Origin: Chitinophaga pinensis
GTDB lineage: Bacteria > Bacteroidota > Bacteroidia > Chitinophagales > Chitinophagaceae
DNA length: 64,000 nucleotides
Direction of reading: 5' to 3'
Assembly (NCBI GenBank): GCA_943368955.1
Contig: CALRLY020000009.1
Location: 8,983-72,982 of the forward strand
Part shown: one piece after another, positions 50,068 to 64,000 of the stretch
Numbering within the stretch: the first letter of the stretch is position 1
How the letters are laid out: the number at the start of each line of letters is the position of its first letter
Notes under the pieces: model-generated
The model's database searches: none
The model's input: only the letters and a program-made list of their open reading frames with translations
Told to the model about the DNA's origin: nothing
Translations under genes and position numbers: made by a program

Positions 50068-50141
50068 TCCTCCTTAGCTCAGTTGGTTAGAGCATCTGAC
50101 TGTTAATCAGAGGGTCTCAGGTTCAAGTCCTGAAGGGGGAG
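50068..50141 (+). tRNA. tRNA-Asn(GTT)
   Basis: Acceptor TCCTCCT/AGGGGGA, anticodon arm TCTGA-CTGTTAA-TCAGA, GTTCAAGTC T-loop, discriminator G; TATTTTTG promoter box at 50038-50045. Confidence 0.96.
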
Positions 50142-50149
50142 CTGAAAAT

Positions 50150-50190
50150 CAAGCAGTTACGAGGTAGAATCCGTAGCTGCTTTTTTCTTT
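50150..50190 (+). terminator. Hairpin plus T-tract after tRNA-Asn
   Basis: AAGCAGTTACG-N10-CGTAGCTGCTT (one G-U pair) followed by a T-run. Confidence 0.65.
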
Positions 50191-50208
50191 GCACCAAGAG
50201 TTGCACCA
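50189..50208. repeat. Direct repeat at the island junction (possible integrase arm-type sites)
   Basis: TTGCACCA-AGAG-TTGCACCA. Confidence 0.4.
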
Positions 50209-50416
50209 TAACCAATTAAGAACATTGACATGGTTTTCGAATGCAAACGAGAATCATCTCTCCAACACGGCCTATCTTTCATATAATTATAATCAAAAGA
50301 AACCTGTTTTAAAGCTCAACGCAAAACTATTTTCTGTATCTATTTTGGTTGTATTTATAAAAGTCTCAATGTAGTATATTGTAACTAGATTCATTATTTT
50401 ACCACCAAAACACACT

Positions 50417-50992
50417 ATGGATAAGCTAACATCCCTCAATCTGTCATTCGACAGGATTCTCATTCAAATCATAGTTCCGGGGCTAACTGCAATTTTTCCT
50501 TATTTCCTGCTCTTTTTAAACCATCGCCCCAAAGCAAAAGATTACTTCTACAATAACCAATCTGTTACAATTACGGCCATTACCTTGATTTCTCTTATTG
50601 CTGGTATGTTATTGGAAAACTTTGGAGGCCGATTTGAGGTCTGTTATCTGGATAGGAGAATGCGAAAACGGAATTCAGATTTTGATGTAATCTGGAATAA
50701 GTACTTAAGTATATCCTACAGGGATGAGCCAATTGGCCAACGCTATTTGAGAAATATTCTACTTCGATTGAAGTTTGAAATTTCAATGGGTATTGCTATG
50801 ATACCAATGATGACAGGATTATTAATTCTCAACTATCAACTTCATATATTTGAATCCTTCTATTTGACCTTACTTTTAATGGTTCTTATGCCGGTAACCA
50901 TATCTATCTACTTACTTTTTTACGAGGCCCGGAGTAGTTCATTAATTTTGGATAAAACCAGAAGGTTATTGGTGGAAAATTTTAATACTTAA
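50417..50992 (+). CDS. Hypothetical integral membrane protein (about 4 TM)
   Basis: Two pairs of hydrophobic helices separated by a charged loop; no family recognised. Confidence 0.75.
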   Translation: MDKLTSLNLSFDRILIQIIVPGLTAIFPYFLLFLNHRPKAKDYFYNNQSVTITAITLISLIAGMLLENFGGRFEVCYLDRRMRKRNSDFDVIWNKYLSISYRDEPIGQRYLRNILLRLKFEISMGIAMIPMMTGLLILNYQLHIFESFYLTLLLMVLMPVTISIYLLFYEARSSSLILDKTRRLLVENFNT

Positions 50993-51071
50993 TGTGCTAG
51001 TAATTCTTCCGTTTAGGGTGTTCAATTTTTTTAATTGATTTTTTTGGAAGGCAGCTTTAATGGGGTAAATA

Positions 51072-52082
51072 ATGGCAACCAATAAACATGCTATAATAAG
51101 GTATCATGCTTTAGACCAGTGTTTTAGCAACCCTGGTCGTAGGTATTTTATTGACGACCTTATTACAGCGTGTGGTGATGCCTTATATGAATACACCGGA
51201 TCATCTGAAGGGGTAAAAAGGAGGCAGATTTTCGAGGATATTAAATTCATGGAAAGTGAGCAAGGTTGGTCCATACCACTGGAAAGATTGAAGGATGGGA
51301 AGCAGGTTTATTACAGATATTCTGACAAATCATTTTCAATCAAGAATCAGGCTGTTAATGAAGCAGAAGCCAAACAATTAAAGGAAACCTTGTCCATCCT
51401 TACAAGATTCAAGGGAATGCCTCAATTTGAATGGATGGAAGAAATGCATGTTAGGCTTGAATCAATCTTCAATTTTAAAAGTAACACAAATGTTATAGTT
51501 GGCTTCGAGCAAAATCAATACTTGAAAGGTCTCAACCATTTTTCAGAGTTATTCCATGCAATACAATATAAGAAAGTATTGTCCATTCAATACAGGGGTT
51601 TTAAACAAACTAAACCTTCACAGGTAAACTTTCACCCTTATTACTTGAAACAGTATAATAGTCGCTGGTTTCTTTTTGGTTACAATGAGAAGTACGACAA
51701 CATAAGCAATTTGGCTTTAGATCGTATTATTAATTTTAAACCAATCAATAAGAAATACCAGGATAACAAGACCATAAATTTTGAAGAGTATTTCGAAGAT
51801 GTTGTTGGGGTAACTGTTTCTAATCGGGCTTCGGTTGATAAAGTTCATCTTGAAATAGCCCCTTCACTTTGGCCTTATATTGAAAGCAAGCCAATTCACG
51901 GATCACAGCGTGTAGTCTCAAAGAAGGGTGGTGAAGTAGTAATAGAGCTTACAGTGCAGTTGAACTATGAATTAGTAACCACACTTTTTGCTTATGGCGA
52001 AGGGGTCAAAGTATTGCAACCAGACAGCTTGAAAAAGGAAATGATAACAAAGGCAAAAGCCTTAATAAACAAGTATTTATAA
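51072..52082 (+). CDS. WYL-domain transcriptional regulator (wHTH-WYL-WCX)
   Basis: N-terminal wHTH (RRQIFEDIKFME...YYRY); WYL core FHPYYLKQYNSRWFLFG...NLALDRII; C-terminal VKVLQPDSLK WCX motif. Confidence 0.92.
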   Translation: MATNKHAIIRYHALDQCFSNPGRRYFIDDLITACGDALYEYTGSSEGVKRRQIFEDIKFMESEQGWSIPLERLKDGKQVYYRYSDKSFSIKNQAVNEAEAKQLKETLSILTRFKGMPQFEWMEEMHVRLESIFNFKSNTNVIVGFEQNQYLKGLNHFSELFHAIQYKKVLSIQYRGFKQTKPSQVNFHPYYLKQYNSRWFLFGYNEKYDNISNLALDRIINFKPINKKYQDNKTINFEEYFEDVVGVTVSNRASVDKVHLEIAPSLWPYIESKPIHGSQRVVSKKGGEVVIELTVQLNYELVTTLFAYGEGVKVLQPDSLKKEMITKAKALINKYL

Positions 52083-52083
52083 C

Positions 52084-52120
52084 CTATGCATATACACTGC
52101 ACACATAGTATTCATCTTTG
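52084..52120 (+). promoter_or_regulatory. Internal promoter with a palindromic operator candidate ahead of the MTase-kinase gene
   Basis: CTATG...CATAG (52084-52108) containing TGCA-N7-TGCA; CATCTTTG -7-like box at 52113-52120. Confidence 0.45.
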
Positions 52121-52143
52121 CTTCGTCAATCACAAAATAGTAT

Positions 52144-54603
52144 ATGATGAAGGAATTTAAGATAGAAGAGATATTGCCAGTTGAAGCATTGAAGTCCAAA
52201 ATTTGGTCAATGTTTGATATTCTAAGAAGTGAACGAATCGCTTCAGAAGATTATCATGTGTTATTGTTCCTTCTGTCTGCATATAAAGACGGATTATTCA
52301 ATACTGAGATTCTCAATGAGAACAGTAATTTGAATGAAAGGCTTGTACGTTGTTTGCATAACTCTGAATCAGAGTTAACAAATCAATACAATGCAATACT
52401 TGCAACTTTTGAGCCGCTTGTGATGCGACTATCTGAAAACGGCACAAGGCATATAATAAGTGCATTGGGTGAATTGAACTTGGCAATATTGGATGAACAC
52501 TTTGCTGATATTTTTGATGCTGTTTTATATCGTATCACACAATCTCAAGGCAGATTTGGCGGTGAGTTTATACAGCCTGTTGAGTTGACTCGCTTCATAT
52601 GTGGCCTGGCCGAATTGCAACCCAATTCAAAGGTTTACAATCCTTTTGCCGGATTGGCTTCATTTGGTGTATACCTTGATCAAGGACAAGATTATTTTGG
52701 TCAGGAATTAAATCAAAAAACATGGGCTTTGGGGGCATTGCGTATAATGGCATATCAAAGACCCGGCACTTCAAGATATGTTTGTGACGACTCTATAAGT
52801 CATTGGCCGGCTACTTCAGAAAAATTTGATTTTATTGTAGCCAATCCTCCTTACGGAATGCGTCTTGGCAACCAATACAGGGAGATAGAACCTGAGTTCC
52901 GCACTATAGAACAGTTTCTGCTCGAAAAAGGGGTGCATTCTTTAAATGAAAAGGGCAAGCTGATTGCATTATTACCACAGGGAATTTTGTTTAGGGGTTT
53001 GCATGAGCAGCGTTTAAGAGAATTTCTCGTTGATGAGGATTTGATTGATACAATTATATCATTACCAGGGGGCTTGCTTTTAAATACAGGTATTCCATTA
53101 ATAATAATGGTATTGAATAAAAACAAGAAGATACCTGGCAAAGTTAGATTTGTAGATGCGAAGAAATTCGTTGATTCTAAGAGCCCGAGAGAAAGAGTGC
53201 TTAATGATTATGGGTTGAATAGTTTTCTGTATGGTAGTAAAAATGATTCTGATATTCTCCGTCTTGTTTCTAACGATGAGATAAGAGCATTCGATTATAA
53301 TCTTAGTGTCCCTCGTTATTTCCAAAAGCAGGTTGAGGGGGTGAAACTTGGTGAAATCATAGAGTTTGTTAGAGGCCAAAGAGTAAACTTGCCTCCAACA
53401 GGCAAGCTAATTCGTATTCGAGATTTAAAGGATGATAAAATTGATTTTCGTTTAGACGAAGCAACAATTGAAGATTTAGAACTGAGAAGGCCCGATATTC
53501 ATCAGATAACAGAATCATGCTTACTGTTAGCTGTTCGCTGGAAGACCTTAAAGCCCACATATTTCGAGTATAAAGGTGAAGCAATCTATCGAAGTCAGGA
53601 TATATTGTCTTTCAAAGTAAATGAGGCAATTGCAGATAAGGCATTTTTAATTAATGAGCTTCATGCTGATTATGTTCAGGAACAATTGGAGTCCTATCGT
53701 TTAGGGGCATCTGTAATGCCTTTTCTCCGAAAGGATGACCTGATGGAAGTTGTTATCAAACTGCCTTCTCTTCAGGAGCAAAGAGCGAAGGTTCAGGGTA
53801 TATATGAACTTTCCGATAAGATTAAGAGCCTGCAAGTTGAAAGGAATGCTTTGGCTCATGGTAAGTCACTAAAGCAATTCAGTGAGTTTGCATCGCTGAA
53901 ACACACACTTGGCAGGCCAAGACAAAATATCCTGGATTGGTCAGATAATCTGCTTCATTTTTTAAATGAAAAACGGGAAGGTTTTGAAGCATTGAATAAA
54001 GCCTTTATTGAGTTTTATGATACTGACATAATCTCCGCTTTAAAGGAAATTAAGAGGGATGTTAACTTCATAACTGATGTTCTCGAAAAGGGCGAAAATG
54101 GGTTTGTTTTAAGTGAATATGAGACAAACATTATTCCACTCTCAGATATCAATAGCCTGATTAATGAGCTTTCTAACAATGGATTCAACTTTAAAATCAA
54201 GAAATTGCCTTTAAAGTCGGAGAAGCTTAAAGACCGTGGCATTTCAGCAAACCGGATATTATTCAAAACACTTTTGGATAACATCTTAACGAATGCAAAT
54301 AAATATGCATTCAGTAAACGGGAGTCAGGAAATGAAGTGGTTGTGGAATTAACTGAAGTAGAGGATATTCTCTCTATGGAGGTGAAAAACAACGGGAAGC
54401 CATTTCCCAAAAACTTCGATCGGGAAAAGTTTATTACAAAATATTCCACGGCTGATACTGCTGCGGGTACTGGTTTAGGTGGCTACGACATACATCGCAT
54501 TGCCTCGCACTTTAGTAATCCTGATTGGGAATTGTCATTAAATGAAGATCCCATCTACCCGGTAAAATTCAAGTTTCAATTTCCAATTAAATTAATGAAT
54601 TGA
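52144..54603 (+). CDS. Fusion protein: HsdM-like N6-adenine methyltransferase, single HsdS-like TRD, histidine kinase (DHp + HATPase_c)
   Basis: HsdM_N-like KIWSMFDILR; GGEFIQP; motif I variant N166PFAGLAS; GQELN; motif IV N234PPY; LPGGLLLNTGIP; YNLSVPRY; TRD VKLGEI...IKLPSLQEQ; H-box SLKH587TLGRP; N-box DNILTNANKYA; KNNGKPF; GTGLGGY. Confidence 0.85.
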   Translation: MMKEFKIEEILPVEALKSKIWSMFDILRSERIASEDYHVLLFLLSAYKDGLFNTEILNENSNLNERLVRCLHNSESELTNQYNAILATFEPLVMRLSENGTRHIISALGELNLAILDEHFADIFDAVLYRITQSQGRFGGEFIQPVELTRFICGLAELQPNSKVYNPFAGLASFGVYLDQGQDYFGQELNQKTWALGALRIMAYQRPGTSRYVCDDSISHWPATSEKFDFIVANPPYGMRLGNQYREIEPEFRTIEQFLLEKGVHSLNEKGKLIALLPQGILFRGLHEQRLREFLVDEDLIDTIISLPGGLLLNTGIPLIIMVLNKNKKIPGKVRFVDAKKFVDSKSPRERVLNDYGLNSFLYGSKNDSDILRLVSNDEIRAFDYNLSVPRYFQKQVEGVKLGEIIEFVRGQRVNLPPTGKLIRIRDLKDDKIDFRLDEATIEDLELRRPDIHQITESCLLLAVRWKTLKPTYFEYKGEAIYRSQDILSFKVNEAIADKAFLINELHADYVQEQLESYRLGASVMPFLRKDDLMEVVIKLPSLQEQRAKVQGIYELSDKIKSLQVERNALAHGKSLKQFSEFASLKHTLGRPRQNILDWSDNLLHFLNEKREGFEALNKAFIEFYDTDIISALKEIKRDVNFITDVLEKGENGFVLSEYETNIIPLSDINSLINELSNNGFNFKIKKLPLKSEKLKDRGISANRILFKTLLDNILTNANKYAFSKRESGNEVVVELTEVEDILSMEVKNNGKPFPKNFDREKFITKYSTADTAAGTGLGGYDIHRIASHFSNPDWELSLNEDPIYPVKFKFQFPIKLMN

Positions 54604-54605
54604 TT

Positions 54606-55787
54606 ATGGAAGATATACTCTACAATATCCTTTGGATTGATGACGAACATGAATCACTTGCAGGCACAAAAGGGCGTGCAAAGAGAAATGGCATTATTCT
54701 GATACCTTTCAAATCGCTAAATAGCGGTATGTCTGAATTGGAAAACAATTATCCTTTTTATGACGGGGTGTTATTAGATGCTAAGTTTTTTGAGAACGAA
54801 GACGATGTGAAAGGCTCAGAGGATACCTATAATGTGCATCGGGCGAAGGAGCGATTATTACAGCTCAAAAAGAAATTTGAAGTATTCATTCTTACAGGTC
54901 AGGCGGAAGCATATGAGGATAAGACTTTCAAAAAAGCCTTCACTAAGGTTTACAAGAAAGGTAGTGATGACGAGATAGACCGTTTATTTGCCGATATTAA
55001 ATTAGCTGCAGCAACCCAGGAGGACACTCAAATACGCCATGCATACAAACGGGTTTTTGATGTTTGTACAGAAAAGTATATTGGAGAATTGGCAGGTCAG
55101 GATGTATTGAATCTCCTGAAGGTTAACGATGACTTAAACATCGACAATCACTTTAATGCTATCCGAAAAATCGTTGAGGATTTGTTTACAGCTTTCAGTA
55201 AGTATCGTTTACTTCCGCTTGAATTTGTTACACCTGGTGTTGCGTTAAATGAGAGTAGCAAATTTTTAGCAGGTAAAGCCGCTGACGGTACTCCTTTCAT
55301 TGAAAAGGGCTATCAGCATTCAGAAGAAACTCATTTGCCGTTGCTAATTGCTTCTTCTTTGAGAAGCATACTTTCTATAACGCAAGCAGGTTCTCACAGG
55401 TCTAATATCGATTTGCATGTTAAAACCATCAAAACCCCATTCCTTTTTAGGAGTGTGCTATTTCAACTTTTAGATGTGCTTACTTGGTTTAAGCTATATG
55501 TAGATTCAAACCCTAAGACAGAGAACTGGATAAGAATTGCCAATGTAGCTGAGTCTATACCTGAATCAGCTGAAGATTCCGTAATGGGCAAAGTGATAAA
55601 TGTAAACCAACAAAAGGGCTTTGCTTTTTTCAAGCCAGATGCAATTGGTGATAATGTTTTTATACCTCCACACTTGGTAGCAAATAATTCATTAGAAGAT
55701 CAAATGCCTGTTCGTGTGGTGACTGAAGAATACATTGATAACAGGACGGGAGAAACTAAAACAAGAGTAAAACGAATTGTGAACTAA
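54606..55787 (+). CDS. Response-regulator-like protein: receiver, helical (HEPN/DUF4145-like?) domain, cold-shock-like OB domain
   Basis: ILWIDD, GVLLD58, VFILTG and VYKK give an intact receiver; the middle domain has FNAIRKIVEDLF and ILSITQAGSH; the C-terminus has GKVINVNQQKGFAFF...DNVFIP. ATG lies 2 nt after the upstream stop (TTG 54600 is an alternative). Confidence 0.75.
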   Translation: MEDILYNILWIDDEHESLAGTKGRAKRNGIILIPFKSLNSGMSELENNYPFYDGVLLDAKFFENEDDVKGSEDTYNVHRAKERLLQLKKKFEVFILTGQAEAYEDKTFKKAFTKVYKKGSDDEIDRLFADIKLAAATQEDTQIRHAYKRVFDVCTEKYIGELAGQDVLNLLKVNDDLNIDNHFNAIRKIVEDLFTAFSKYRLLPLEFVTPGVALNESSKFLAGKAADGTPFIEKGYQHSEETHLPLLIASSLRSILSITQAGSHRSNIDLHVKTIKTPFLFRSVLFQLLDVLTWFKLYVDSNPKTENWIRIANVAESIPESAEDSVMGKVINVNQQKGFAFFKPDAIGDNVFIPPHLVANNSLEDQMPVRVVTEEYIDNRTGETKTRVKRIVN

Positions 55788-55797
55788 TAAAACAACT

Positions 55798-57360
55798 ATG
55801 GCAAGAGAATTAGAAAGAGATGAACTGCACCGCACCATCTGGCAAATAGCAAACGATTTGAGAGGCAGTGTTGATGGCTGGGATTTTAAAACCTATGTAT
55901 TGGGTATGTTATTCTATCGGTTCATTTCAGAGAACCTTACATCCTACATTAGTAAGGAGGAACAACGTACCGGCCAAAAGAACTTCAACTATGCCGATAT
56001 TTCGGATAAAGATGCTGAGTTGGGCAGAGTGGATACGGTGAAAGAGAAAGGCTTTTATATTCTACCATCTGAGTTGTTTGTAAACGTTCGTAAAAAGGCG
56101 AAGACAGATGAAAATCTTAATGAAACACTGAGCCGTGTTTTCAAAAATATTGAGCATTCAGCTAAAGGAACAGAAAGCGAAGGCGATCTGAAAGGCTTGT
56201 TCGATGATATGGATGTGAACAGTAATAAACTGGGTGCAACCGTTACCAAGCGTAATGAAGCACTGGTTAAAATATTGGATGCAATAGGCGACTTGAAATT
56301 AGGCGATTATCAGGACAATAGCATTGATGCCTTTGGCGATGCTTATGAGTTTCTGATGACCATGTATGCCAGCAATGCTGGAAAATCGGGCGGTGAATTT
56401 TTTACCCCTCAGGAAGTTTCTGAACTATTGGCCGAAATAACGGTTGTGGGCAAAAAACAGGTGAATAAAGTATATGACCCTGCTTGTGGTTCAGGCTCAC
56501 TGTTGTTGAAGTTTGCGAAAGTACTTGGTAAAGAAAATGTAAGGCAGGGATTTTTTGGGCAGGAGGTAAATATTACTACCTACAACCTTTGCCGCATCAA
56601 CATGTTTTTACACGACATCAATTATGAAAAATTTGATATTGCACATGGCGATACACTAACAGACCCCAGGCATTGGGATGATGAACCATTTGATGCCATT
56701 GTTTCCAATCCGCCTTATTCCATTAAATGGGAGGGCGATGCCAATCCTTTGTTGATTAACGACCCCCGTTTTTCACCTGCTGGGGTATTAGCCCCCAAAA
56801 GCAAAGCCGACCTTGCCTTTACCCTGCACATGCTGCATTGGCTTTCCACTTCGGGAACTGCCGCTATTGTTGAGTTTCCCGGGGTGTTGTACCGGGGTGG
56901 TGCGGAGCAGAAAATTCGCAAGTACCTGATTGATAACAATTATGTAGATGCGGTGATACAACTGCCTCCCGACCTGTTTTTTGGAACTACCATAGGCACT
57001 TGCATTATTGTATTGAAGAAAAGCAAGAAGGATAATGCTACCTTATTTATTGATGCATCAGCCGAGTTTGTTCGGAGTGGTAACAAGAACAAACTTACCG
57101 ATACCAACCGCAAGAGAATACTCAACGCTTATATTGAACGGAAATACGAAGCTCATTTTGCAAAGTTGGTATTGAACAGCGATATCGCTGAAAACGATTA
57201 CAATATTGCCGTAAGCAGTTATGTGGAGCAGGAAAACACTTCTGAGGAGGTGGACATTTCAACACTGAATGCCCATATTGCCGAGATAGTGATTAAGCAA
57301 AATAAGCTGCGTTCTGCTATTGATGAAATAATTGCTGATTTAGAAGGAGGTAGCTTATGA
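55798..57360 (+). CDS. hsdM: Type I restriction-modification methyltransferase subunit M
   Basis: IWQIANDLRGSVDGWDFK, GKSGGEFFTP, YDPACGSGSLL, IVSNPPY. Confidence 0.97.
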   Translation: MARELERDELHRTIWQIANDLRGSVDGWDFKTYVLGMLFYRFISENLTSYISKEEQRTGQKNFNYADISDKDAELGRVDTVKEKGFYILPSELFVNVRKKAKTDENLNETLSRVFKNIEHSAKGTESEGDLKGLFDDMDVNSNKLGATVTKRNEALVKILDAIGDLKLGDYQDNSIDAFGDAYEFLMTMYASNAGKSGGEFFTPQEVSELLAEITVVGKKQVNKVYDPACGSGSLLLKFAKVLGKENVRQGFFGQEVNITTYNLCRINMFLHDINYEKFDIAHGDTLTDPRHWDDEPFDAIVSNPPYSIKWEGDANPLLINDPRFSPAGVLAPKSKADLAFTLHMLHWLSTSGTAAIVEFPGVLYRGGAEQKIRKYLIDNNYVDAVIQLPPDLFFGTTIGTCIIVLKKSKKDNATLFIDASAEFVRSGNKNKLTDTNRKRILNAYIERKYEAHFAKLVLNSDIAENDYNIAVSSYVEQENTSEEVDISTLNAHIAEIVIKQNKLRSAIDEIIADLEGGSL

Positions 57361-58580
57361 GCAGGATATATAAATTGATACAAGAGCTTTGTCCTGATGG
57401 AGTTGAGTTTAGGTATTTAAATGAACTCGGCTTCTTTTACGGAGGTTTATCAGGAAAAACAAAAAGTGATTTTGAAAATGGCAATGCGAAGTTTATATCC
57501 TACATGAATATTTATTCAAATATTGCAGTTAAAACCGATGTAAACGATTTTGTAAATGTTGGAGAAAATGAAAATCAAAATAGAATTGAAATAGGAGATG
57601 TACTATTCACTGGTTCATCAGAAACACCAGATGAATGCGGCATGTCATCAGTTGTAACTAAAGATGTCATTGAACCATTGTATTTAAATAGTTTCTGTTT
57701 CGGATTTCGTTTGCATAATAAAGATCTCTTTTTACCTGATTTTTTGAAGTATCTTTTTAGGAGTGATGAACTAAGGAGGCAAATTGCTCAAACGGCAAGT
57801 GGAGTGACAAGATTCAATGTTTCTAAAAAGCGTTTTGGAAAATTGCTGATTCCTTTGCCACCACTTGAAGTTCAGGAAGAAATAGTCAAAACCCTCGATT
57901 TGTTCACTGAATTGGAAGCTGAATTGGAAGCTGAATTGGAAGCCAGGAAAACGCAATATACGCATTACAGAGATGCTTTACTTCGTTTTGAGGGTAAAGA
58001 AGTGGAATGGAAAACGTTGGGGGAATTAGGTAATGTTTGCATGTGCAAACGAGTTTTTAAAGAGGAAACTTCAACAAGCGGTGATATTCCTTTTTACAAA
58101 ATTGGAACTTTTGGCAAGAAACCAGACTCCTTCATTTCAAAGGAACTTTATCAAGAATATAGAAATAGATTTTCATTTCCTAAAAAGGGCGATATTCTAA
58201 TATCTGCCTCAGGGACAATTGGAAGAACAGTTATTTACGATGGGGAGCCAGCATATTTCCAAGACAGTAATATTGTATGGATAGATAATGACGAAACCTA
58301 TGTAACAAACAAATTCCTATTCCACTATTATAAAATTGTAAAGTGGCAAACAGATACAGGCGGAACAATTGTGAGGCTTTATAATGACAACATTAAAAAA
58401 ACTAGGATTCCAGTTCCATCTAAAAAAGAGCAAGAAAGAATCGTTGCGATTTTAGACAAATTCGATGCATTGGTAAATGATATTTCAATTGGTCTACCAG
58501 CAGAAATTGAAGGCCGTAGAAAGCAATACGAGTATTATCGCAACCGATTGTTGACATTTAAAGAAATAGCCAATGGATAA
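57357..58580 (+). CDS. hsdS: Type I RM specificity subunit S (two TRDs)
   Basis: LIQELCPDGVEF start; conserved PLPPLEVQEEIV...ELEAELEAELEARKTQY.YRD.LL.F; second repeat PVPSKKEQERIVAILDKF...RRKQYEYYRNRLLTF. Confidence 0.96.
   Translation: MSRIYKLIQELCPDGVEFRYLNELGFFYGGLSGKTKSDFENGNAKFISYMNIYSNIAVKTDVNDFVNVGENENQNRIEIGDVLFTGSSETPDECGMSSVVTKDVIEPLYLNSFCFGFRLHNKDLFLPDFLKYLFRSDELRRQIAQTASGVTRFNVSKKRFGKLLIPLPPLEVQEEIVKTLDLFTELEAELEAELEARKTQYTHYRDALLRFEGKEVEWKTLGELGNVCMCKRVFKEETSTSGDIPFYKIGTFGKKPDSFISKELYQEYRNRFSFPKKGDILISASGTIGRTVIYDGEPAYFQDSNIVWIDNDETYVTNKFLFHYYKIVKWQTDTGGTIVRLYNDNIKKTRIPVPSKKEQERIVAILDKFDALVNDISIGLPAEIEGRRKQYEYYRNRLLTFKEIANG
57907..57942 (+). repeat. 12-bp tandem repeat x3 in the hsdS central conserved region
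   Basis: (CTGAATTGGAAG)x3, encoding the ELEA repeats. Confidence 0.9.
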
Positions 58581-61500
58581 ATACTATATAGTTGCTGAAA
58601 ATCCGGAAAGTACCGTTGTAGCGGAGTATCAGACTCCCTACATACGAGAAACTGCCTACCAAACAGAAGACCAATTGGAAAAGGCATTTATCCAATTGCT
58701 GCAAGGTCAGGCTTATGATTATTTAACCATTACCAGTGAAGCAGCACTTACCAATAATCTTCGTTTGCAATTACAGAAGCTGAACAACTATACCTTCAGC
58801 GATAAAGAGTGGGATCATTTTTTTAAAAGCAAAATTGCGAACCCAAATAGCGGAATTGAAGAAAAAACATCTTTGATACAGGAAGACCATATTCAAATCC
58901 TGGATTGTGATGATGGCACAAAAAAGAACATTTACCTGCTGGATAAAACGAATATCCATAACAATCAATTGCAGGTCATTAATCAATATGAAGTTGCAGA
59001 TGGGCAGCGACCAAACCGGTATGATGTTACTATACTGGTAAACGGTTTACCATTGGTACATATTGAGTTAAAGAAAAGGGGTGTAGATATTAAAGAAGCC
59101 TTCAACCAGATTAACCGTTATAACCGTGAATCTTTCTGGAGTGGCTCAGGCTTGTTTGAGTATGTGCAATTATTCGTCATATCCAACGGAACTTATACTA
59201 AGTACTACAGCAACACCACAAGGTTTTCGCATGTAAAGGAACAAAGCCGCAGTGCTACAGTCAATAAGAAACGAACCAGTAACAGCTTTGAGTTTACTTC
59301 CTGGTGGGCAGATGCCAATAACCGTCCGATTACAGACCTGATGGATTTTGGTCGCACTTTTTTCGCCAAGCACACATTGTTAAATGTTCTTTGCAAGTAC
59401 TGCGTGTTTACAACAGACAAACTGTTATTGGCTATGCGTCCTTACCAGATTGTGGCAACAGAAAGGATTTTAGGACGAATCAATACAGCCAATAACTACA
59501 AAGCCTATGGTAGTATTAATGCCGGTGGGTATATATGGCATACAACAGGCAGCGGCAAAACGCTTACATCGTTCAAAACGGCACAATTAGCCAGCAAGTT
59601 GCCATTCATAACCAAAGTGTTGTTTGTGGTAGACAGGAAAGACCTGGACTATCAAACCATGAAGGAATATGATAAGTTTGAAAAGGGAGCTGCAAACAGT
59701 AATACCAACACTTCCATTCTAAAGAAGCAACTAAGCGACCCTAAGGCAAACATTATCATTACTACGATTCAGAAATTATCTATTCTGATAAAGAAAGAAA
59801 AGAATCACCTGGCCTTCAAAGAGTCGATTGTAATAATATTTGATGAATGCCATCGTTCGCAGTTTGGCGATATGCATAAGGCTATCACCAAAGCCTTTAA
59901 GAAATATTTTCTGTTCGGTTTTACCGGTACACCCATATTTGCTATCAATGCCAGCAGCAGCAACAAACCCGATTTAAAAACCACAGAACAGGCTTTTGGT
60001 CAAAAGCTGCACACTTATACCATTGTAGATGCCATCAATGATAAAAATGTGCTGCCGTTTCGTATTGACTACATACGAACAATGAAAGAGCAGGAAGAAA
60101 TTAAGGATGAAAAAGTTTGGGACATAGATAGAGAAAGGGCATTGGCAGCACCACAACGTATAAGCAATGTGGTAACTTATATTTTAGAACATTTTGACCA
60201 GAAGACAAAGCGAAACAGCAAACCTTACAACTTTACTTCCTTAAAGAACATTTACGAAGTTGTATCTGCGAAGGACCGTAACAAAATTGAAGAAGTAAAA
60301 CAGAAAATCAGACTCACAGGCTTCAATTCCATTTTTGCAGTGAGTTCTATCGACTTTGCTAAATTGTATTACAATGAGTTTAAAACGCAACAAAGCAGCT
60401 TGCCGGAATTACAGCGTTTGAAAGTGGCCACTATTTTCAGCTTTGGTGTAAACGATGATGATGAAGATGGGCTGCCTGATGAGAACTCAGAAGGTACAGA
60501 AGGCCTGAGTGTATCTGATAGAGATTTTCTGGAAAAAGCAATCAGCGATTACAACCAGATTTTCAAAACGAATTATGATACATCAACCGAAAAATTCCAG
60601 AACTACTATAAGGATGTATCCCTGCGAATGAAGAACAGGGAAATTGATTTACTTATTGTAGTAAATATGTTCCTGACGGGTTTTGATGCTACCACACTCA
60701 ATACACTTTGGGTAGATAAAAACCTTAGGTTACATGGCCTGCTACAGGCATATTCCAGAACCAACCGCATTTTAAATTCGGTAAAAACGTTTGGAAACAT
60801 TGTTTGCTTCAGAAACTTGGAGAAGGCTACCAATGAAAGTATCGCATTGTTTGGCGATAAAGAAGCCGGAGGTATTGTACTGCTAAAAACCTTTGATGAA
60901 TATTATAATGGCTATAAGGATGGTGAAAAAACATACCCTGGATACGTTTCACTCATCAACGAACTCATTGCCAAATTTCCGGTGGGTGAACAGATAATAG
61001 GAGAGCAAAATCAAAAAGCCTTTATCCGTTTGTATGGTTCCATTCTAAAAGCAAAAAATATACTCACCACTTTTGATGAATTTACAGGAAGGGAAATACT
61101 TAGTGAAAGGGATGTACAGGATTACCATAGCATGTACATCAATCTTTACCATGAGTTCCGAAACAGAAATACGGGTGATGCAGAAAATGTGAATGATGAT
61201 ATTGTTTTTGAAATGGAGTTGATAAAGCAAGTAGAGATCAATATCGACTACATTTTGGAACTCATCAGAAAATATCATGAAGGTCACCTAAGGGATAAGG
61301 AGATAATCATCAGTATCAACAAGGCAATTGATTCCAGTGTAGAATTACGGAACAAAAAAGACCTTATTGAAAAGTTCATTCAATCACTTACACCGGGCTC
61401 AAAGGTTACAGATGATTGGGAGAGTTTTGTTGAACAAAAAAAGCTGGAAGAATTAGATCAAATTATTGTTGAAGAAGAGCTTGATAAAGAAGAGACCTAC

Positions 61501-61689
61501 AAGTTTATCCACAATGCTTTTCGGGATGGATATGTACAAACTACCGGTACTGGATTAGCGAAGATTCTTCCACCGGTTTCGAGGTTTACACCTACTGGCG
61601 AAAGAACCCAAAAAAGAGAATCTGTTATTGAGAAAATTAAGGCATTCTTCAACAGGTTCTGGGATATTTCAGGTGGTATGTTGGAATAA
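58573..61689 (+). CDS. hsdR: Type I RM restriction subunit R (EcoR124I-like)
   Basis: Nuclease RYDVTILVNGLPLVHIELK...QINRY; helicase WHTTGSGKTLT, DECHRSQFG, GFTGTP, FLTGFDA, QAYSRTNR. Confidence 0.97.
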   Translation: MDKYYIVAENPESTVVAEYQTPYIRETAYQTEDQLEKAFIQLLQGQAYDYLTITSEAALTNNLRLQLQKLNNYTFSDKEWDHFFKSKIANPNSGIEEKTSLIQEDHIQILDCDDGTKKNIYLLDKTNIHNNQLQVINQYEVADGQRPNRYDVTILVNGLPLVHIELKKRGVDIKEAFNQINRYNRESFWSGSGLFEYVQLFVISNGTYTKYYSNTTRFSHVKEQSRSATVNKKRTSNSFEFTSWWADANNRPITDLMDFGRTFFAKHTLLNVLCKYCVFTTDKLLLAMRPYQIVATERILGRINTANNYKAYGSINAGGYIWHTTGSGKTLTSFKTAQLASKLPFITKVLFVVDRKDLDYQTMKEYDKFEKGAANSNTNTSILKKQLSDPKANIIITTIQKLSILIKKEKNHLAFKESIVIIFDECHRSQFGDMHKAITKAFKKYFLFGFTGTPIFAINASSSNKPDLKTTEQAFGQKLHTYTIVDAINDKNVLPFRIDYIRTMKEQEEIKDEKVWDIDRERALAAPQRISNVVTYILEHFDQKTKRNSKPYNFTSLKNIYEVVSAKDRNKIEEVKQKIRLTGFNSIFAVSSIDFAKLYYNEFKTQQSSLPELQRLKVATIFSFGVNDDDEDGLPDENSEGTEGLSVSDRDFLEKAISDYNQIFKTNYDTSTEKFQNYYKDVSLRMKNREIDLLIVVNMFLTGFDATTLNTLWVDKNLRLHGLLQAYSRTNRILNSVKTFGNIVCFRNLEKATNESIALFGDKEAGGIVLLKTFDEYYNGYKDGEKTYPGYVSLINELIAKFPVGEQIIGEQNQKAFIRLYGSILKAKNILTTFDEFTGREILSERDVQDYHSMYINLYHEFRNRNTGDAENVNDDIVFEMELIKQVEINIDYILELIRKYHEGHLRDKEIIISINKAIDSSVELRNKKDLIEKFIQSLTPGSKVTDDWESFVEQKKLEELDQIIVEEELDKEETYKFIHNAFRDGYVQTTGTGLAKILPPVSRFTPTGERTQKRESVIEKIKAFFNRFWDISGGMLE

Positions 61690-61741
61690 CTTTTCAAAGG
61701 CAAACCAACCTGAACATTTAATAATGAAATAAAAAACAGAT

Positions 61742-62653
61742 ATGGCACTATACATAAATCACACCGGCAAACTCAAGGAGGTAAAAGAAAAGCCCTTCAA
61801 ATTGGAAAAAGACATACAGAAAGTGTTTGAAGCCAATCTGTGTGATATTATGGGCTTGGAATTGGTGAAGAGTGAGTTTACCATCAAAAACAAGCGTATA
61901 GATACGTTGGCTTATGATACACAGGCTTCCGCCTTCATCATTATTGAGTACAAGCGGGACAAGAATATTAGTGTGGTGGACCAGGGTTTTACCTACCTGA
62001 GTCTGATGCTGGAAAACAAAGCTGATTTTATTGTAGAGTATAACGAAAGTCTGAAACGCAACCTGAAACGGGAGGATGTAGATTGGAGCCAAACAAGGGT
62101 TGCATTTGTATCTACCAATTTTACCGACAACCAGGTGCAGGCAACAAACTTCAAAGACATTGCCATTGAATTATGGGAGGTAAAACAGTTTGAGAATGAT
62201 ACCATCATGATCAATCCTGTCAAGAAATCAAATGCAGCCGAAAGTATCAAGCCATTAACCCAGAATAAGGAAGCACTTAAAAAGGTAACCGAAGAAATAA
62301 AGGTCTACACAGAGGAAGAACATCTGTCAAAAACCAGCGAAGCCATTGCCGAATTGTATGAGAAATTCAGGCAAGGAATACTGCAATTGGCTGATGAAAT
62401 CGAAATCAAGCCAAAGAAGATGGAAATAGGCTTTAGAAAAGACAGTAAAGTGTTTGCAGATATATGTATCCTGAAAAACTCCCTGAAAATGTGGATTAAC
62501 TTAAAAAAAGGAAAATTAGATGACCCCAAGCAGCTGGCAGAAGATGTTTCAGAAAAAGGGCATTGGGGCAATGGAGATTATCAATTACAGGTTGAGTCTG
62601 ATGTAAATCTTGAATACATTATGAGCTTGATAAAGCAAGCAATAAAGAAATAA
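61742..62653 (+). CDS. Predicted PD-(D/E)xK nuclease (NucS-like N-terminus) with DUF5655-like C-terminal domain
   Basis: LEKDIQ...RIDTLAYD...FIIIEYKRD...DQGFTY; C-terminal IEIKPKKMEIGF...KGHWGNGDY. Confidence 0.75.
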   Translation: MALYINHTGKLKEVKEKPFKLEKDIQKVFEANLCDIMGLELVKSEFTIKNKRIDTLAYDTQASAFIIIEYKRDKNISVVDQGFTYLSLMLENKADFIVEYNESLKRNLKREDVDWSQTRVAFVSTNFTDNQVQATNFKDIAIELWEVKQFENDTIMINPVKKSNAAESIKPLTQNKEALKKVTEEIKVYTEEEHLSKTSEAIAELYEKFRQGILQLADEIEIKPKKMEIGFRKDSKVFADICILKNSLKMWINLKKGKLDDPKQLAEDVSEKGHWGNGDYQLQVESDVNLEYIMSLIKQAIKK

Positions 62654-62710
62654 AAACATTTTCTTGATACTTGGAATGCAGCAAATGTTTTATCTAAAAT
62701 TGGTTTGTTT

Positions 62711-64000
62711 ATGACTGAAGTAAAAAAAGAAGATAATAAGTCTGAGTGCAAACTCTGGTTTTCTAGGTGGTCAAACTTTAATATGCAAGCTTACAGGGAT
62801 GACATGAGTCTTTCTGTAATTTGTTGGTCATTTGCATTTCTTGCAATAGTTGTAGTTTTCCAAACACCAATACAACAGTTTCTTAACTATTTCATAGTAG
62901 ACCCGTTTTTGTCTCTTTGTAAAAAGACATTCGTCGTTGATATTATTTTTTTAACATTATTATCCATATCGCTTATATTTTTTGTTCAGCAGATCAGAAA
63001 GCACAAGGTTCCAACATTAAACTCGTTGGTTTTATCTACTGTTATTTTCAGTTTGTATTATTTTGTATTTAAAAATGAGAATGGTTATGTGTTTTACCAT
63101 TTTACTATTGAATATTTAAATCAATTTACATACTCATTTGTCTCAATATTTAGTATGTTAATTTTAAGTATTTCATATCGTTTATATCAACTGCCACTTA
63201 CAAAAGGTCCTTCAAGGTTTTCATTCATAGAGGATAGTCCCTCAATAGAGAAATATAATGATGTATATAGTAGATCGTTATATGCGGAATCGGTGGCCAA
63301 ACATTTAGAAAGCACATCTACTGATGAATCATTTGCCGTTGGAGTAATAGGAGATTGGGGTTCGGGGAAAAGTGATTTTATGAATCGATTAAAGAAATGT
63401 TTGGAACAAAATAATGACAATATAGTATTTACATTTAATCCATGGCGGATTAATAAAGTAGATGGCATAGTTGAGGAGTTTTTTAATTCTTTATCAAAGC
63501 ATCTTGAACCTTTTAATCAATCAATAGGTAGTATAATTAACGATTATTCTTCCAGGGTTTTAAAAGGCGCAAGAGAGACTCAATTGAAGCTAATTGACGC
63601 CTTAATTGATAACTGGTTTCAAGAGAAAGATATTCATGAGAGATATAAAAAAATAAATGATTCTATAAAGGCTACGTCAAAGAGATTAGTTGTTTTCATA
63701 GATGACGTTGATCGTTTAACAGCAAAAGAGATCATAGAGGTTTTACGAATAATAAGAAATACTGCAAGTTTTGCTAACACATTTTTTATTGTTAGTATCG
63801 ATCAAAAATATATAATTGAAGTTTTAAAAAACACAAAAGAGATCACAAATGAAGAAGAATATCTTAAGAAAGTTTTTCAGCTTACGATCACTCTTCCGAC
63901 ATTTAAAAAGCAAGTATTTACCAATGAATTTAAGAAACACATTTTAACCTCTGATCTTTCAGAAAAAGAGAAACGTTTATTATCTTCTAACTTTTCAATT
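62711..64000 (+). CDS. KAP-family P-loop NTPase with N-terminal TM helices, truncated by the window edge
   Basis: My translation from ATG 62711 is open to the window end: about 4 hydrophobic helices, Walker A GVIGDWGSGKS, FNPW, Walker B LVVFIDDVDRL, YLKKVFQL. Confidence 0.9.
   Translation, partial: MTEVKKEDNKSECKLWFSRWSNFNMQAYRDDMSLSVICWSFAFLAIVVVFQTPIQQFLNYFIVDPFLSLCKKTFVVDIIFLTLLSISLIFFVQQIRKHKVPTLNSLVLSTVIFSLYYFVFKNENGYVFYHFTIEYLNQFTYSFVSIFSMLILSISYRLYQLPLTKGPSRFSFIEDSPSIEKYNDVYSRSLYAESVAKHLESTSTDESFAVGVIGDWGSGKSDFMNRLKKCLEQNNDNIVFTFNPWRINKVDGIVEEFFNSLSKHLEPFNQSIGSIINDYSSRVLKGARETQLKLIDALIDNWFQEKDIHERYKKINDSIKATSKRLVVFIDDVDRLTAKEIIEVLRIIRNTASFANTFFIVSIDQKYIIEVLKNTKEITNEEEYLKKVFQLTITLPTFKKQVFTNEFKKHILTSDLSEKEKRLLSSNFSI

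Follow-up and report, generated by a model that had tools for sequence, protein, structure and literature searches.

What does a receiver-domain protein without a DNA-binding output do when its gene lies between a histidine kinase gene and a type I restriction-modification (R-M) operon? The original prediction, made for a 393-residue product encoded in the window (the whole 64,000-nucleotide stretch of DNA that we analyzed), was that such a protein might be a phosphorylation-gated RNase or RNA-binding toxin. Two-component relays have been shown to act as immune systems only recently, in Detocs (10.1101/2023.01.24.525353) and Ambrosia (10.1101/2025.09.30.679545). We conclude that the gene encodes the receiver of a putative phosphorylation relay made up of two proteins, which occurs almost exclusively beside type I restriction systems in Bacteroidota. 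Our literature searches found no published description of this kinase/response regulator pair.

The open reading frame extends from ATG 54606 to TAA 55785-55787. An in-frame TTG at 54600 is a less likely start because homologs begin MEDI.YNILWIDDE. The 393-aa product is confidently modeled as three domains (AF2, pLDDT 94.7): a divergent receiver, a helical domain of ~170 aa and a cold-shock/S1-like barrel. Its features are as follows.

54606..55787, + strand: response-regulator-like effector gene, 393 aa (open reading frame call; AF2 model with pLDDT 94.7, pTM 0.81)
54606..55013, + strand: receiver (REC) domain, residues 1-136 (profile match to 3jte, Foldseek, residue conservation)
54639-54644, + strand: acidic pair D12/D13, conserved REC residues
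54777-54779, + strand: D58, the phospho-acceptor, a conserved REC residue
54894-54896, + strand: T97, a conserved REC residue
54957-54959, + strand: K118, a conserved REC residue
55014..55541, + strand: helical output domain, residues 137-312 (AF2 model of the domain alone, pLDDT 94.7, pTM 0.91)
55164-55166, + strand: R187, invariant in the family
55176-55178, + strand: E191, near-invariant in the family
55395-55397, + strand: H264, invariant in the family
55578..55784, + strand: cold-shock/S1-like OB fold, residues 325-393 (Pfam PF22707; five strands in the model)

The family to which this protein belongs, collected at E<=1e-3 and clustered at 50% identity, contains at least 869 clusters, and would add a large, phylum-wide branch to the known defensive relays. 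We scored residue conservation on 129 representatives and repeated the scoring on an independent set of 79 species genomes, which agreed. Three residues are invariant among the representatives: D58, R187 and H264. The residues on which the original prediction was built, namely D12-D13, D58, T97, K118, FNAIRKIVEDLF (183-194), ILSITQAGSH264 and the C-terminal GKVINVNQQKGFAFF...NVFIP, all lie where it had placed them. Its assertion that the output is not a helix-turn-helix (HTH) also holds, with no HTH found by Pfam, NCBIfam or PADLOC or in the AF2 model; across the whole protein and each domain separately, the OB fold was the only match that Pfam, NCBIfam and PADLOC produced. The protein also has a cognate kinase gene directly upstream and sits in a defense context.

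The receiver had been said to carry a complete catalytic set (DD, D58, T and K), and this set proved to be 94-100% conserved across the family: D12 at 94-100%, D13 at 99-100%, D58 at 100%, T/S97 at 100% and K118 at 99-100% (129 representatives and 79 species genomes). The family profile matches the receiver structure 3jte (E=1.2e-4) with the catalytic residues aligned. By Foldseek, the AF2 model resembles REC structures with a TM of 0.70-0.76, normalized to the target, and an rmsd of about 3 A, and residues 6-136 alternate between strands and helices in a manner fitting (beta/alpha)5. Receivers were the only Foldseek matches to the full-length model, and phmmer and hmmsearch against PDB sequences returned only a receiver (E 1e-4) and a marginal CspA. 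Pfam Response_reg (PF00072) did not match the window protein even at E<=10 and matched just one of the 129 family members (E 0.004). Because PF00072 is nearly blind to the family, we place this receiver on a divergent branch. It nonetheless keeps every residue needed for D58 to accept phosphate, and is predicted to be phospho-competent.

A candidate phosphate donor is encoded immediately upstream.

52144..54603, + strand: sensor histidine kinase, 819 aa, with an HsdM-like N6_Mtase, a single TRD, an H-box and HATPase_c (Pfam)
53902-53904, + strand: H587, the H-box histidine of the kinase, invariant in 16/16 homologs

The kinase is soluble, and the response regulator gene is translationally coupled downstream of it, the kinase stop lying 2 nt before the regulator start. 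This order recurs in all 16 Bacteroidota loci and in 75 of 80 species genomes, with the two genes overlapping or 0-22 nt apart. In a phylum sample of 401 genomes, the full-length TRD-kinase was present in exactly the 14 genomes that have the regulator, plus one divergent pair; no alternative partner of the kinase appeared in the 401 genomes, making the pairing strict. Kinase homologs are fusions of 800-940 aa in which neither the H-box His nor the N, G1 and G2 boxes vary (16/16 homologs). In the methylase part, four of 16 homologs have a canonical motif IV (NPPY, F or W) and the other 12 a degenerate one, with variants including SPPI, NPPL, TPPF and FPPV; the window kinase retains NPPY and has an altered motif I. 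Sequence identity in the TRD follows that in the methylase part or is higher, and TRD swapping was not seen. Judging from the Pfam matches in the kinase (N6_Mtase, E 4e-42; Methylase_S, E 5e-4), its sensor derives from R-M subunits, and we infer that the methylase/TRD module is what senses. Such an input would be the first DNA-reading sensor domain of a histidine kinase, and having an R-M methylase/specificity module there makes a route from trouble at the DNA or the restriction complex to a cytoplasmic signal testable.

Kinases and receivers have been tied to restriction before. Two-component-like HEF_HK/Response_reg_2 pairs accompany R-M systems and paraMORC ATPases (Bellieny-Rabelo et al. 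2021, PMC8011034); Ambrosia is a validated system of this kind, whose AbrC carries a wHTH (10.1101/2025.09.30.679545). Our pair is like these in coupling a kinase and a receiver to R-M genes and in having a receiver missed by Pfam Response_reg. However, HEF_HK kinases are built from HATPase_c_3, HEF_HK and HATPase_c and occur mainly with type II/IV R-M and C5 methylases, whereas here a methylase and a TRD are fused into the kinase. We rejected a link between the two groups: PF19191 was not detected in the kinase nor PF19192 in the regulator, PF19192 was also negative across the whole genome from which the window comes, and hhalign to six Response_reg_2 proteins gave a probability of 8%, over the receiver only. 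PADLOC v2.0.0 models gave no match at E<=1 to the kinase core, the REC domain or the middle domain.

The genes surrounding the pair connect it to type I restriction.

50068..50142, + strand: tRNA-Asn, left edge of a low-GC island
51072..52082, + strand: WYL-WCX regulator heading the cluster (Pfam, PADLOC)
55798..61689, + strand: type I R-M genes hsdM-hsdS-hsdR (Pfam, PADLOC)
55798-57360, + strand: hsdM (Pfam, PADLOC)
57357-58580, + strand: hsdS (Pfam, PADLOC)
58573-61689, + strand: hsdR (Pfam, PADLOC)

The hsdMSR genes begin 10 nt after the regulator's stop. The island, with a GC content of 0.36 against 0.50 outside, also encodes a DUF5655 protein and a KAP NTPase. Further loci were recovered in a search seeded with a 14-sequence alignment. 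A WYL homolog lies within 6 kb of the regulator in 64 of 80 loci, and a separate hsdM within the same distance in 63 of 80, including nearly all of the 15 loci viewed in detail; these hsdM genes are of unrelated types. The position of the regulator relative to hsdMSR varies, being upstream in the window and in locus L001, and downstream in locus L002. An attenuator or antiterminator reading of the locus was ruled out by the gene gaps of 2-10 nt and by there being no excess of terminators.

What, then, does the receiver control? The original prediction had picked out R187..E191 and ..SH264 in the middle domain, and these turned out to be exactly the invariant positions of the family there: R187 and H264 at 100% and E191 at 95-99% (129 representatives and 79 species genomes). 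Further residues that we annotate in the domain are Q260, S263, D290 and W294. The original prediction had also likened the domain to HEPN, and for this part the outcome is mixed. In HEPN domains, helix 2 carries an acidic residue and is separated from helix 3 by an insert, and helix 3 ends with a His (Anantharaman et al. 2013, PMC3710099). The helix order of the isolated-domain model (DSSP) fits a HEPN four-helix bundle that has such an insert; E191 sits on helix 182-199, and H264 is at the end of helix 246-262 or in the loop there. Thus, helix order and residue placement fit, but no significant match was obtained and the Arg of the HEPN Rx4-6H motif is absent. No Arg is conserved 4-6 residues upstream of H264 in the family alignment, nor was a conserved Arg seen at L256, the residue aligned to the DUF4145 Arg, and position 260 (-4 from H264) is Q in 64%, N in 16% and G in 11%. 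R265-x5-H271, a candidate Rx4-6H motif, was ruled out as it is not conserved in the family.

Homology searches with the middle domain were largely silent. Pfam matched none of 49 middle domains, phmmer and hmmsearch found nothing among PDB sequences, and a region-restricted homolog search recovered the same family and no other architecture. Foldseek with the isolated domain gave nothing at E<=0.001 in either PDB (best E 1.8) or BFVD (best E 0.9), and so produced neither a significant HEPN or nuclease match nor a rival non-nuclease fold. HepT and other HEPN toxins are among the top matches listed (E 2-6), with a TM of about 0.47 that is no better than that of generic four-helix bundles such as PsbQ. 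In hhalign against home-made alignments, the middle domain scored a probability of 0.3-0.9% to DUF4145 and 0.4% to HepT, but the DUF4145-HepT positive control scored just 0.3%. As these two true HEPN families miss each other, the assay is underpowered. In its only alignment to DUF4145, which is non-significant, H264 falls opposite the catalytic His and Q260 opposite the Asn; a greedy alignment, also weak, is co-linear and pairs E191 with the helix-2 Glu.

The HEPN identity of the helical domain is thus unproven. Our preferred reading is that it is a very divergent HEPN-type RNase that has lost the canonical Arg and would use the helix-2 Arg; it is possibly a new domain, an RNA cutter related to HEPN. 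As modeled, it resembles the DUF4145-like branch and the c2405 family of HEPN in its four-helix bundle, the helix 2-3 insert, the helix-2 Glu and an exposed His where helix 3 ends. It differs in its greater size of about 170 aa, in two additional N-terminal helices and a beta hairpin, and in having its invariant Arg on helix 2 in place of the motif Arg. The c2405 family is recorded as having the His without the Arg (PMC3710099), and DUF4145 is often fused to type I HsdR; a DUF4145-HsdR fusion is present in locus L001. With its R/E/H triad and no detectable relatives, the domain would be a new effector domain, unless it belongs to HEPN, in which case it would be a new catalytic solution on that fold.

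The C-terminal cold-shock or S1 fold that had been proposed was recovered more directly. Pfam S1CSD-TOTE-2 (PF22707) matches it with a score of 28.1 bits, just above its cut-off of 27 (E 2e-6), the AF2 model contains a five-strand barrel (325-334, 339-344, 351-353, 368-377 and 384-392), and KGFAFF and NVFIP resemble RNP1 and RNP2, respectively. Other family members match CSD (best E 3e-9), OB_RNB and Rho_RNA_bind, and CspA matches with the family profile are marginal. About 15% of the 129 representatives lack the fold, as do nine of the 16 Bacteroidota loci sampled, so that RNA binding would not extend to the whole family. TOTE conflict systems comprise TPR, OB, TBP and Effector (Aravind et al. 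2022, cited in PMC12458937). The likeness to them is that this OB fold passes a Pfam model built from TOTE S1/CSD domain 2; the neighborhood here has no TPR, TBP or TOTE effector, and the OB module alone is common to both.

The most likely role of the locus is that of a defensive phosphorelay resembling Detocs, which would guard type I restriction, or extend it, with an RNA-directed effector. Tentatively, and as a reading that could well be right, we regard the protein as the response-regulator half of a dedicated two-gene phosphorelay acting as, or together with, an anti-phage system. In such a relay, the methylase/TRD module would report an event at the level of DNA or the restriction complex, candidate signals being foreign DNA that is unmodified or a DNA mimic with which a phage counters restriction. 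From there the signal would travel through a conserved helix into the kinase, and phosphate on H587 would be handed to D58. Phosphorylation of D58, probably by way of receiver dimerization, would turn on the helical domain, with R187, E191 and H264 as its candidate active site and the cold-shock fold, where present, supplying RNA to it. The predicted outcome is growth arrest or abortive infection, backing up type I restriction. A more specific 'restriction guard' version is possible, if doubtful: here the decayed HsdM-TRD would be the first known histidine kinase sensor working at the level of DNA, or of anti-restriction proteins, and non-self DNA or a phage DNA mimic attacking type I enzymes would trigger His-to-Asp transfer, with infection aborted by a HEPN-like RNase not recognized before, whose Arg has been relocated.

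Detocs (DtcA-DtcB-DtcC; Rousset et al.) established that relays from a histidine kinase to a REC-effector can be anti-phage; it consists of a TPR-kinase (DtcA), a stand-alone receiver (DtcB) and a REC-effector (DtcC) (10.1101/2023.01.24.525353). Our pair is similar in placing a soluble kinase beside a receiver protein that carries an effector domain in place of a DNA-binding output, in its modular effector slot, in the abortive infection proposed to follow His-to-Asp transfer, and in a phospho-acceptor that is likewise D58. The sensor, however, is TPR repeats in Detocs and HsdM/TRD here; this cluster has no TPR and no stand-alone buffer receiver equivalent to DtcB; the Detocs effector is a PNP ATP nucleosidase, whereas here it is a helical domain with or without a CSD; and linkage to WYL and type I R-M is obligate for our pair.

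The analogy to PrrC that was drawn originally is apt as far as context goes, PrrC being an effector whose gene sits inside a type I hsd operon. Control of PrrC comes from an ABC-type ATPase domain and from the protein's direct association with EcoprrI and the T4 Stp peptide. Like the genes of the anticodon nucleases PrrC and RloC, the present effector gene lies in or beside a type I R-M operon; its product, like theirs, is proposed to serve as a backup once restriction comes under challenge, and has an RNA-directed output of HEPN type, although only as a candidate. In contrast to PrrC, whose HEPN domain keeps Rx4-6H, the helical domain lacks that motif, and control would fall to a dedicated kinase and a receiver domain.

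The output could instead be a non-catalytic RNA- or ssDNA-binding regulator that tunes the expression or activity of the adjacent hsdMSR without killing the cell, phosphorylation altering how the helical domain and CSD bind transcripts or the type I enzyme, for example in restriction alleviation after DNA damage or while a new specificity establishes. The CSD/S1 fold, the placement of the gene 10 nt upstream of hsdM in one operon, the tight linkage to type I R-M and a WYL regulator, and the related R-M-linked Ambrosia, proposed to work by regulation, are all consistent with this, as is the lack of a detectable nuclease signature (Pfam on 49 domains, Foldseek). We nevertheless consider it unlikely. 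The R/E/H triad is invariant although many members have no OB fold, which argues for catalysis or a very specific ligand over general nucleic-acid binding. In addition, the gene lies upstream of hsdMSR in some loci (window, L001) and downstream in another (L002), the intergenic gaps are too short for an attenuator or terminator, and the output module is shuffled in the manner of an effector (see below).

Granting catalysis, the helical domain might be another kind of effector enzyme (a DNase, a nucleotide- or NAD-degrading enzyme, or a protein-modifying one) that is based on R187/E191/H264 and switched by D58. An invariant polar triad in a domain without detectable relatives would suit such an enzyme, the output modules are swappable, and Detocs demonstrates that REC-gated effectors can attack small molecules. 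But most members are fused to CSD, S1, OB_RNB or Rho-type RNA-binding folds, suggesting a nucleic-acid substrate, and topology and motif positions fit HEPN better than the other all-alpha enzymes that could be named, making this alternative quite improbable.

Four helices bearing one invariant His behind a receiver also recall an HPt domain, in which H264 would take the phosphate from D58 and pass it to an unlinked receiver in a multistep relay. This is very improbable, as the best 50 Foldseek matches include no HPt structure even though the PDB holds many, H264 lies at a helix end or loop rather than mid-helix, and an HxxKG-type motif is absent. Moreover, the invariant R and E on another helix would be unexplained, and no second receiver gene is conserved nearby in the loci examined.

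Returning to the proposed defensive relay, its distribution is patchy. The regulator occurs in 14 of 401 Bacteroidota genomes (about 3.5% of species), spread over 13 of 179 genera, and proteins near 77% identical are found in different orders, which we attribute to horizontal transfer. That the genes are an ordinary housekeeping two-component pair lying near restriction genes by happenstance is scarcely credible: Bacteroidota do have many two-component systems, and the core of this kinase is a conventional one, but this patchiness, the occurrence of such similar proteins in different orders, the low-GC island at a tRNA, the near-constant linkage to diverse type I R-M operons and a WYL regulator, and a sensor of R-M subunit origin all speak against it.

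Finally, the signaling and output parts have not always traveled together. Of 604 pairs of homologs whose REC domains are at least 70% identical, 83 have middle domains below 40% identity, and the reverse, similar middle domains with dissimilar REC domains, is true of 75 of 550 pairs. The receiver and kinase have thus recombined repeatedly with output modules between lineages, as defense effector modules do. Recombination this clean provides natural chimeras for experiments. For instance, loci L149 and L168 have REC domains that are 96% identical and middle domains that are 22% identical, with divergence starting around residue 150, where the middle domain begins.

The 393-aa open reading frame at 54606-55787 (ATG at 54606, TAA at 55785-55787), singled out in the original prediction, proved to be real and is very probably the receiver half of a dedicated phosphorelay linked to restriction-modification (R-M). 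Its partner is the histidine kinase gene directly upstream, and both lie in a stretch of the window with a GC content of 0.35-0.40, compared with ~0.50 outside it.

This low-GC stretch spans 50150-64000, and its genes of interest are all on the + strand:

50068-50142, tRNA-Asn; GC falls from ~0.50 to 0.36 exactly here, and the low-GC stretch starts directly after
50417-50992, + strand, multi-pass membrane protein of 191 aa, flanked by the tRNA and the WYL gene; weak match to the BA5345 family (E 8e-4)
51072-52082, + strand, WYL-WCX regulator
52144-54603, + strand, 819-aa fusion of an HsdM-like N6-methylase, one target recognition domain (TRD) and a histidine-kinase core
54606-55787, + strand, the receiver protein
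55798-61689, + strand, canonical type I hsdM-hsdS-hsdR
61742-62653, + strand, directly after hsdR, protein of 303 aa; DUF5655 at the C terminus and, at the N terminus, a weak HSDR_N_2/NucS-like nuclease signature
62705-64000, + strand, running off the window, KAP-family P-loop NTPase whose N-terminal region is hydrophobic

Because only 2 nt separate the kinase gene from the receiver gene and 10 nt the latter from hsdM, we infer a single transcription unit. In its entirety, the defence cluster has the look of an island inserted at tRNA-Asn. KAP-family NTPases are common in defence islands, and the DUF5655 protein may be a further defence gene.

The residues named in the original prediction were each found at their positions, and its reading of a complete receiver, no helix-turn-helix (HTH) output and a C-terminal cold-shock-type OB fold held up. 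An AF2 model from a 129-sequence alignment (pLDDT 94.7, pTM 0.81) has three domains: a (beta/alpha)5 domain (residues 6-136), an all-helical domain with one small beta hairpin (139-300) and a five-strand barrel (325-392). Pfam missed the receiver at a cut-off as loose as E<=10; the family profile matched the receiver structure 3jte (E=1.2e-4) with DD, D58, T and K aligned, and the N-terminal domain superposed on dozens of receiver structures (Foldseek, TM 0.70-0.76). We assessed conservation in two independent sets, 129 representatives of 50%-identity clusters and 79 species genomes. In both, D58, R187 and H264 are invariant and only T or S occupies position 97; D13 and K118 are kept in 99-100%, D12 in 94-100% and E191 in 95-99%. 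The receiver, with D12, D13, D58, T97 and K118 all in place, is phospho-competent, and the helical output domain bears an invariant polar triad (R187, E191, H264). No HTH or other DNA-binding output was found in the protein. The barrel scored 28.1 bits against Pfam S1CSD-TOTE-2 (threshold 27), and other family members matched CSD (3e-9), OB_RNB and Rho_RNA_bind. Most members carry this RNA-binding-type OB fold, which is missing from 20 of the 129 representatives.

The family comprises 748 clusters at 90% identity, and 869 at 50% identity with E<=1e-3. Public annotations call its members 'hypothetical protein' or 'cold shock CspA family protein', and the partner 'N-6 DNA methylase'. All 16 loci sampled from Bacteroidota have an ORF of 763-939 aa that either overlaps the receiver gene or stops no more than 4 nt from its start. 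The partner is likewise adjacent (overlapping or 0-22 nt away) in 75 of 80 further species genomes, the other five loci looking like contig ends or broken genes. Distant partners retain the N6_Mtase, Methylase_S and HATPase_c architecture, and the kinase's H-box His and N, G1 and G2 boxes are invariant across homologues. The kinase is conserved and translationally coupled to the receiver. When 401 genomes of the phylum were searched with a TRD-plus-kinase profile, full-length matches occurred only in the 14 receiver-bearing genomes; one additional genome with a match has a divergent receiver gene directly downstream. This confinement indicates one-to-one pairing, as in cognate two-component partners.

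The kinase input is R-M-derived, and its sequence suggests that the partner serves as a sensor rather than as an active methylase. In alignment, the window's fusion protein keeps NPPY and has an altered motif I, and motif IV is canonical in just 4 of 16 homologues, including those at loci L017-L029, with variants such as SPPI, NPPL, TPPF, FPPV and IPSV in others; the kinase boxes are invariant. Cassette swapping is typical of HsdS specificity subunits. Domain-wise identities to the window's copy gave no sign of it in the partner's TRD, where identity falls off smoothly and equals or exceeds that of the methylase part (for example, 71-82% versus 54-73%). A TRD conserved and unswapped in this way points to a constant ligand and not to shifting DNA target sequences. 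A distant kinase homologue, at L027:6794-9607, has an additional HARE-HTH domain at its N terminus. Such DNA-binding modules are typical of restriction enzymes, and the presence of one here strengthens the idea of a DNA-contacting input part.

The pair sits in a defence-island context beyond the window as well: within 6 kb there is a WYL homologue at 64 of 80 loci and a separate hsdM at 63 of 80. These hsdM genes belong to differing lineages (22-41% identity), and the kinase-receiver module precedes hsdM in the window and at locus L001 but follows hsdS at locus L002, so the link to type I R-M appears functional and not merely inherited. The receiver is patchily distributed (14/401 genomes), proteins 72-83% identical occur across Sphingobacteriales, Chitinophagales, Flavobacteriales, Cytophagales and Bacteroidales, and a few members come from MAGs labelled Christensenellaceae, Halanaerobiales, Oceanicaulis, Paceibacterota, Leptospiraceae and Algicola (L111, L129, L133, L141, L164, L168), reflecting either real transfer beyond Bacteroidota or binning contamination. 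Together these patterns indicate spread by horizontal transfer.

Within the family, modules have been shuffled. Among 604 protein pairs with receivers at least 70% identical, 83 have middle domains less than 40% identical; conversely, receivers are less than 40% identical in 75 of 550 pairs whose middle domains are at least 55% identical. Between loci L149 and L168, the receivers are 96% identical and the output domains 22%, diverging abruptly at about residue 150, the start of the middle domain. Since kinase DHp/CA identity tracks the receiver and not the output, receiver and kinase form one evolutionary unit, and middle domain and C-terminal tail another. L107 and L136 are a further pair of loci with recombined receiver-kinase and output modules. 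Defence systems show the same shuffling pattern between their sensor and effector modules. There are at least three output types: CSD-bearing, with another small beta domain, and tail-less (~300 aa). R187 and H264 are kept in all of them and E191 in nearly all, which argues that the helical domain is the core output and the OB fold accessory.

The original prediction also tentatively read the middle domain as a degenerate DUF4145/HEPN domain. Modelled alone, it folds confidently (AF2, pLDDT 94.7, pTM 0.91), and it has no detectable relatives: there was no significant match in Pfam (49 members), a PDB sequence-profile search, PADLOC or Foldseek (best E 1.8 in PDB, 0.9 in BFVD). HEPN proteins made up 6 of the top 50 PDB rows (HepT 6m6u and 7bxo; 7ae6; 1wwp) at TM ~0.47, scoring no better than generic four-helix bundles. 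Using DUF4145 and HepT sequence sets gathered from genomes, one local hhalign alignment to DUF4145 (E 0.22, probability 0.3%) aligned H264 with the catalytic His and Q260 with the conserved Asn, and a greedy, co-linear alignment over 91 columns (E 0.06, probability 0.9%) set E191 on the helix-2 Glu. The true-HEPN positive control, DUF4145 against HepT, performed no better (E 0.17, probability 0.3%), so these figures neither support nor exclude homology. HEPN domains are four-helix bundles in which inserts frequently separate helix 2 from helix 3. Helix 2 bears a conserved acidic residue, and the catalytic motif sits where helix 3 ends and the loop leading to helix 4, a helix that is sometimes kinked, begins (PMC3710099). 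In the model, R187 and E191 lie on helix 182-199, an insert follows (200-245), and helix 246-262 stops just before S263-H264, followed by helices 267-275 and 279-300. Helix order, E191 and H264 therefore fit HEPN anatomy, but no match is significant and the Arg of Rx4-6H is missing; the c2405 HEPN family likewise keeps the His without the Arg (PMC3710099). We rejected R265-x5-H271 as an equivalent, as the string is not conserved in the family. That the middle domain is an RNase of HEPN descent is a tentative reading, somewhat more doubtful than probable.

In the mechanism we propose, the HsdM/TRD module would sense foreign DNA or interference with type I enzymes, the kinase would phosphorylate D58, and receiver dimerisation would switch on the helical domain; HEPN RNases are usually dimers with a composite site (PMC13092281). 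The helical domain would then cleave RNA, with the CSD recruiting substrate, and infection would be aborted or growth stopped. We place this entire chain only just short of an even chance. An unlikely alternative is that the protein regulates the R-M system by binding RNA/ssDNA without catalysis, and less likely again is that the helical domain is an enzyme of another kind. An HPt-like relay is improbable, and a housekeeping role more improbable still.

We take the pair to be a defensive two-component relay with an undescribed sensor-kinase architecture: full-text literature searches yielded no description of it, and no PADLOC v2 (2023) model matched any part, save weakly the OB fold. The nearest working analogue is Detocs, also a kinase with a REC-effector, although its sensor and effector differ and only Detocs has a buffer receiver. 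HEF_HK/Response_reg_2 pairs and Ambrosia are likewise R-M-linked relays, but their kinase architecture and Pfam families differ, and those Pfam families were sought in our pair and not found. PrrC, inside type I operons, is an analogue by context.

At loci L001 (12636-15419) and L002 (1850-7443), the type I operons hosting the pair are also broken up by accessory genes encoding a DUF1016/YhcG nuclease, Fic, 23S rRNA IVS four-helix proteins and DUF3644, and the HsdR of L001 bears an N-terminal DUF4145 HEPN domain.
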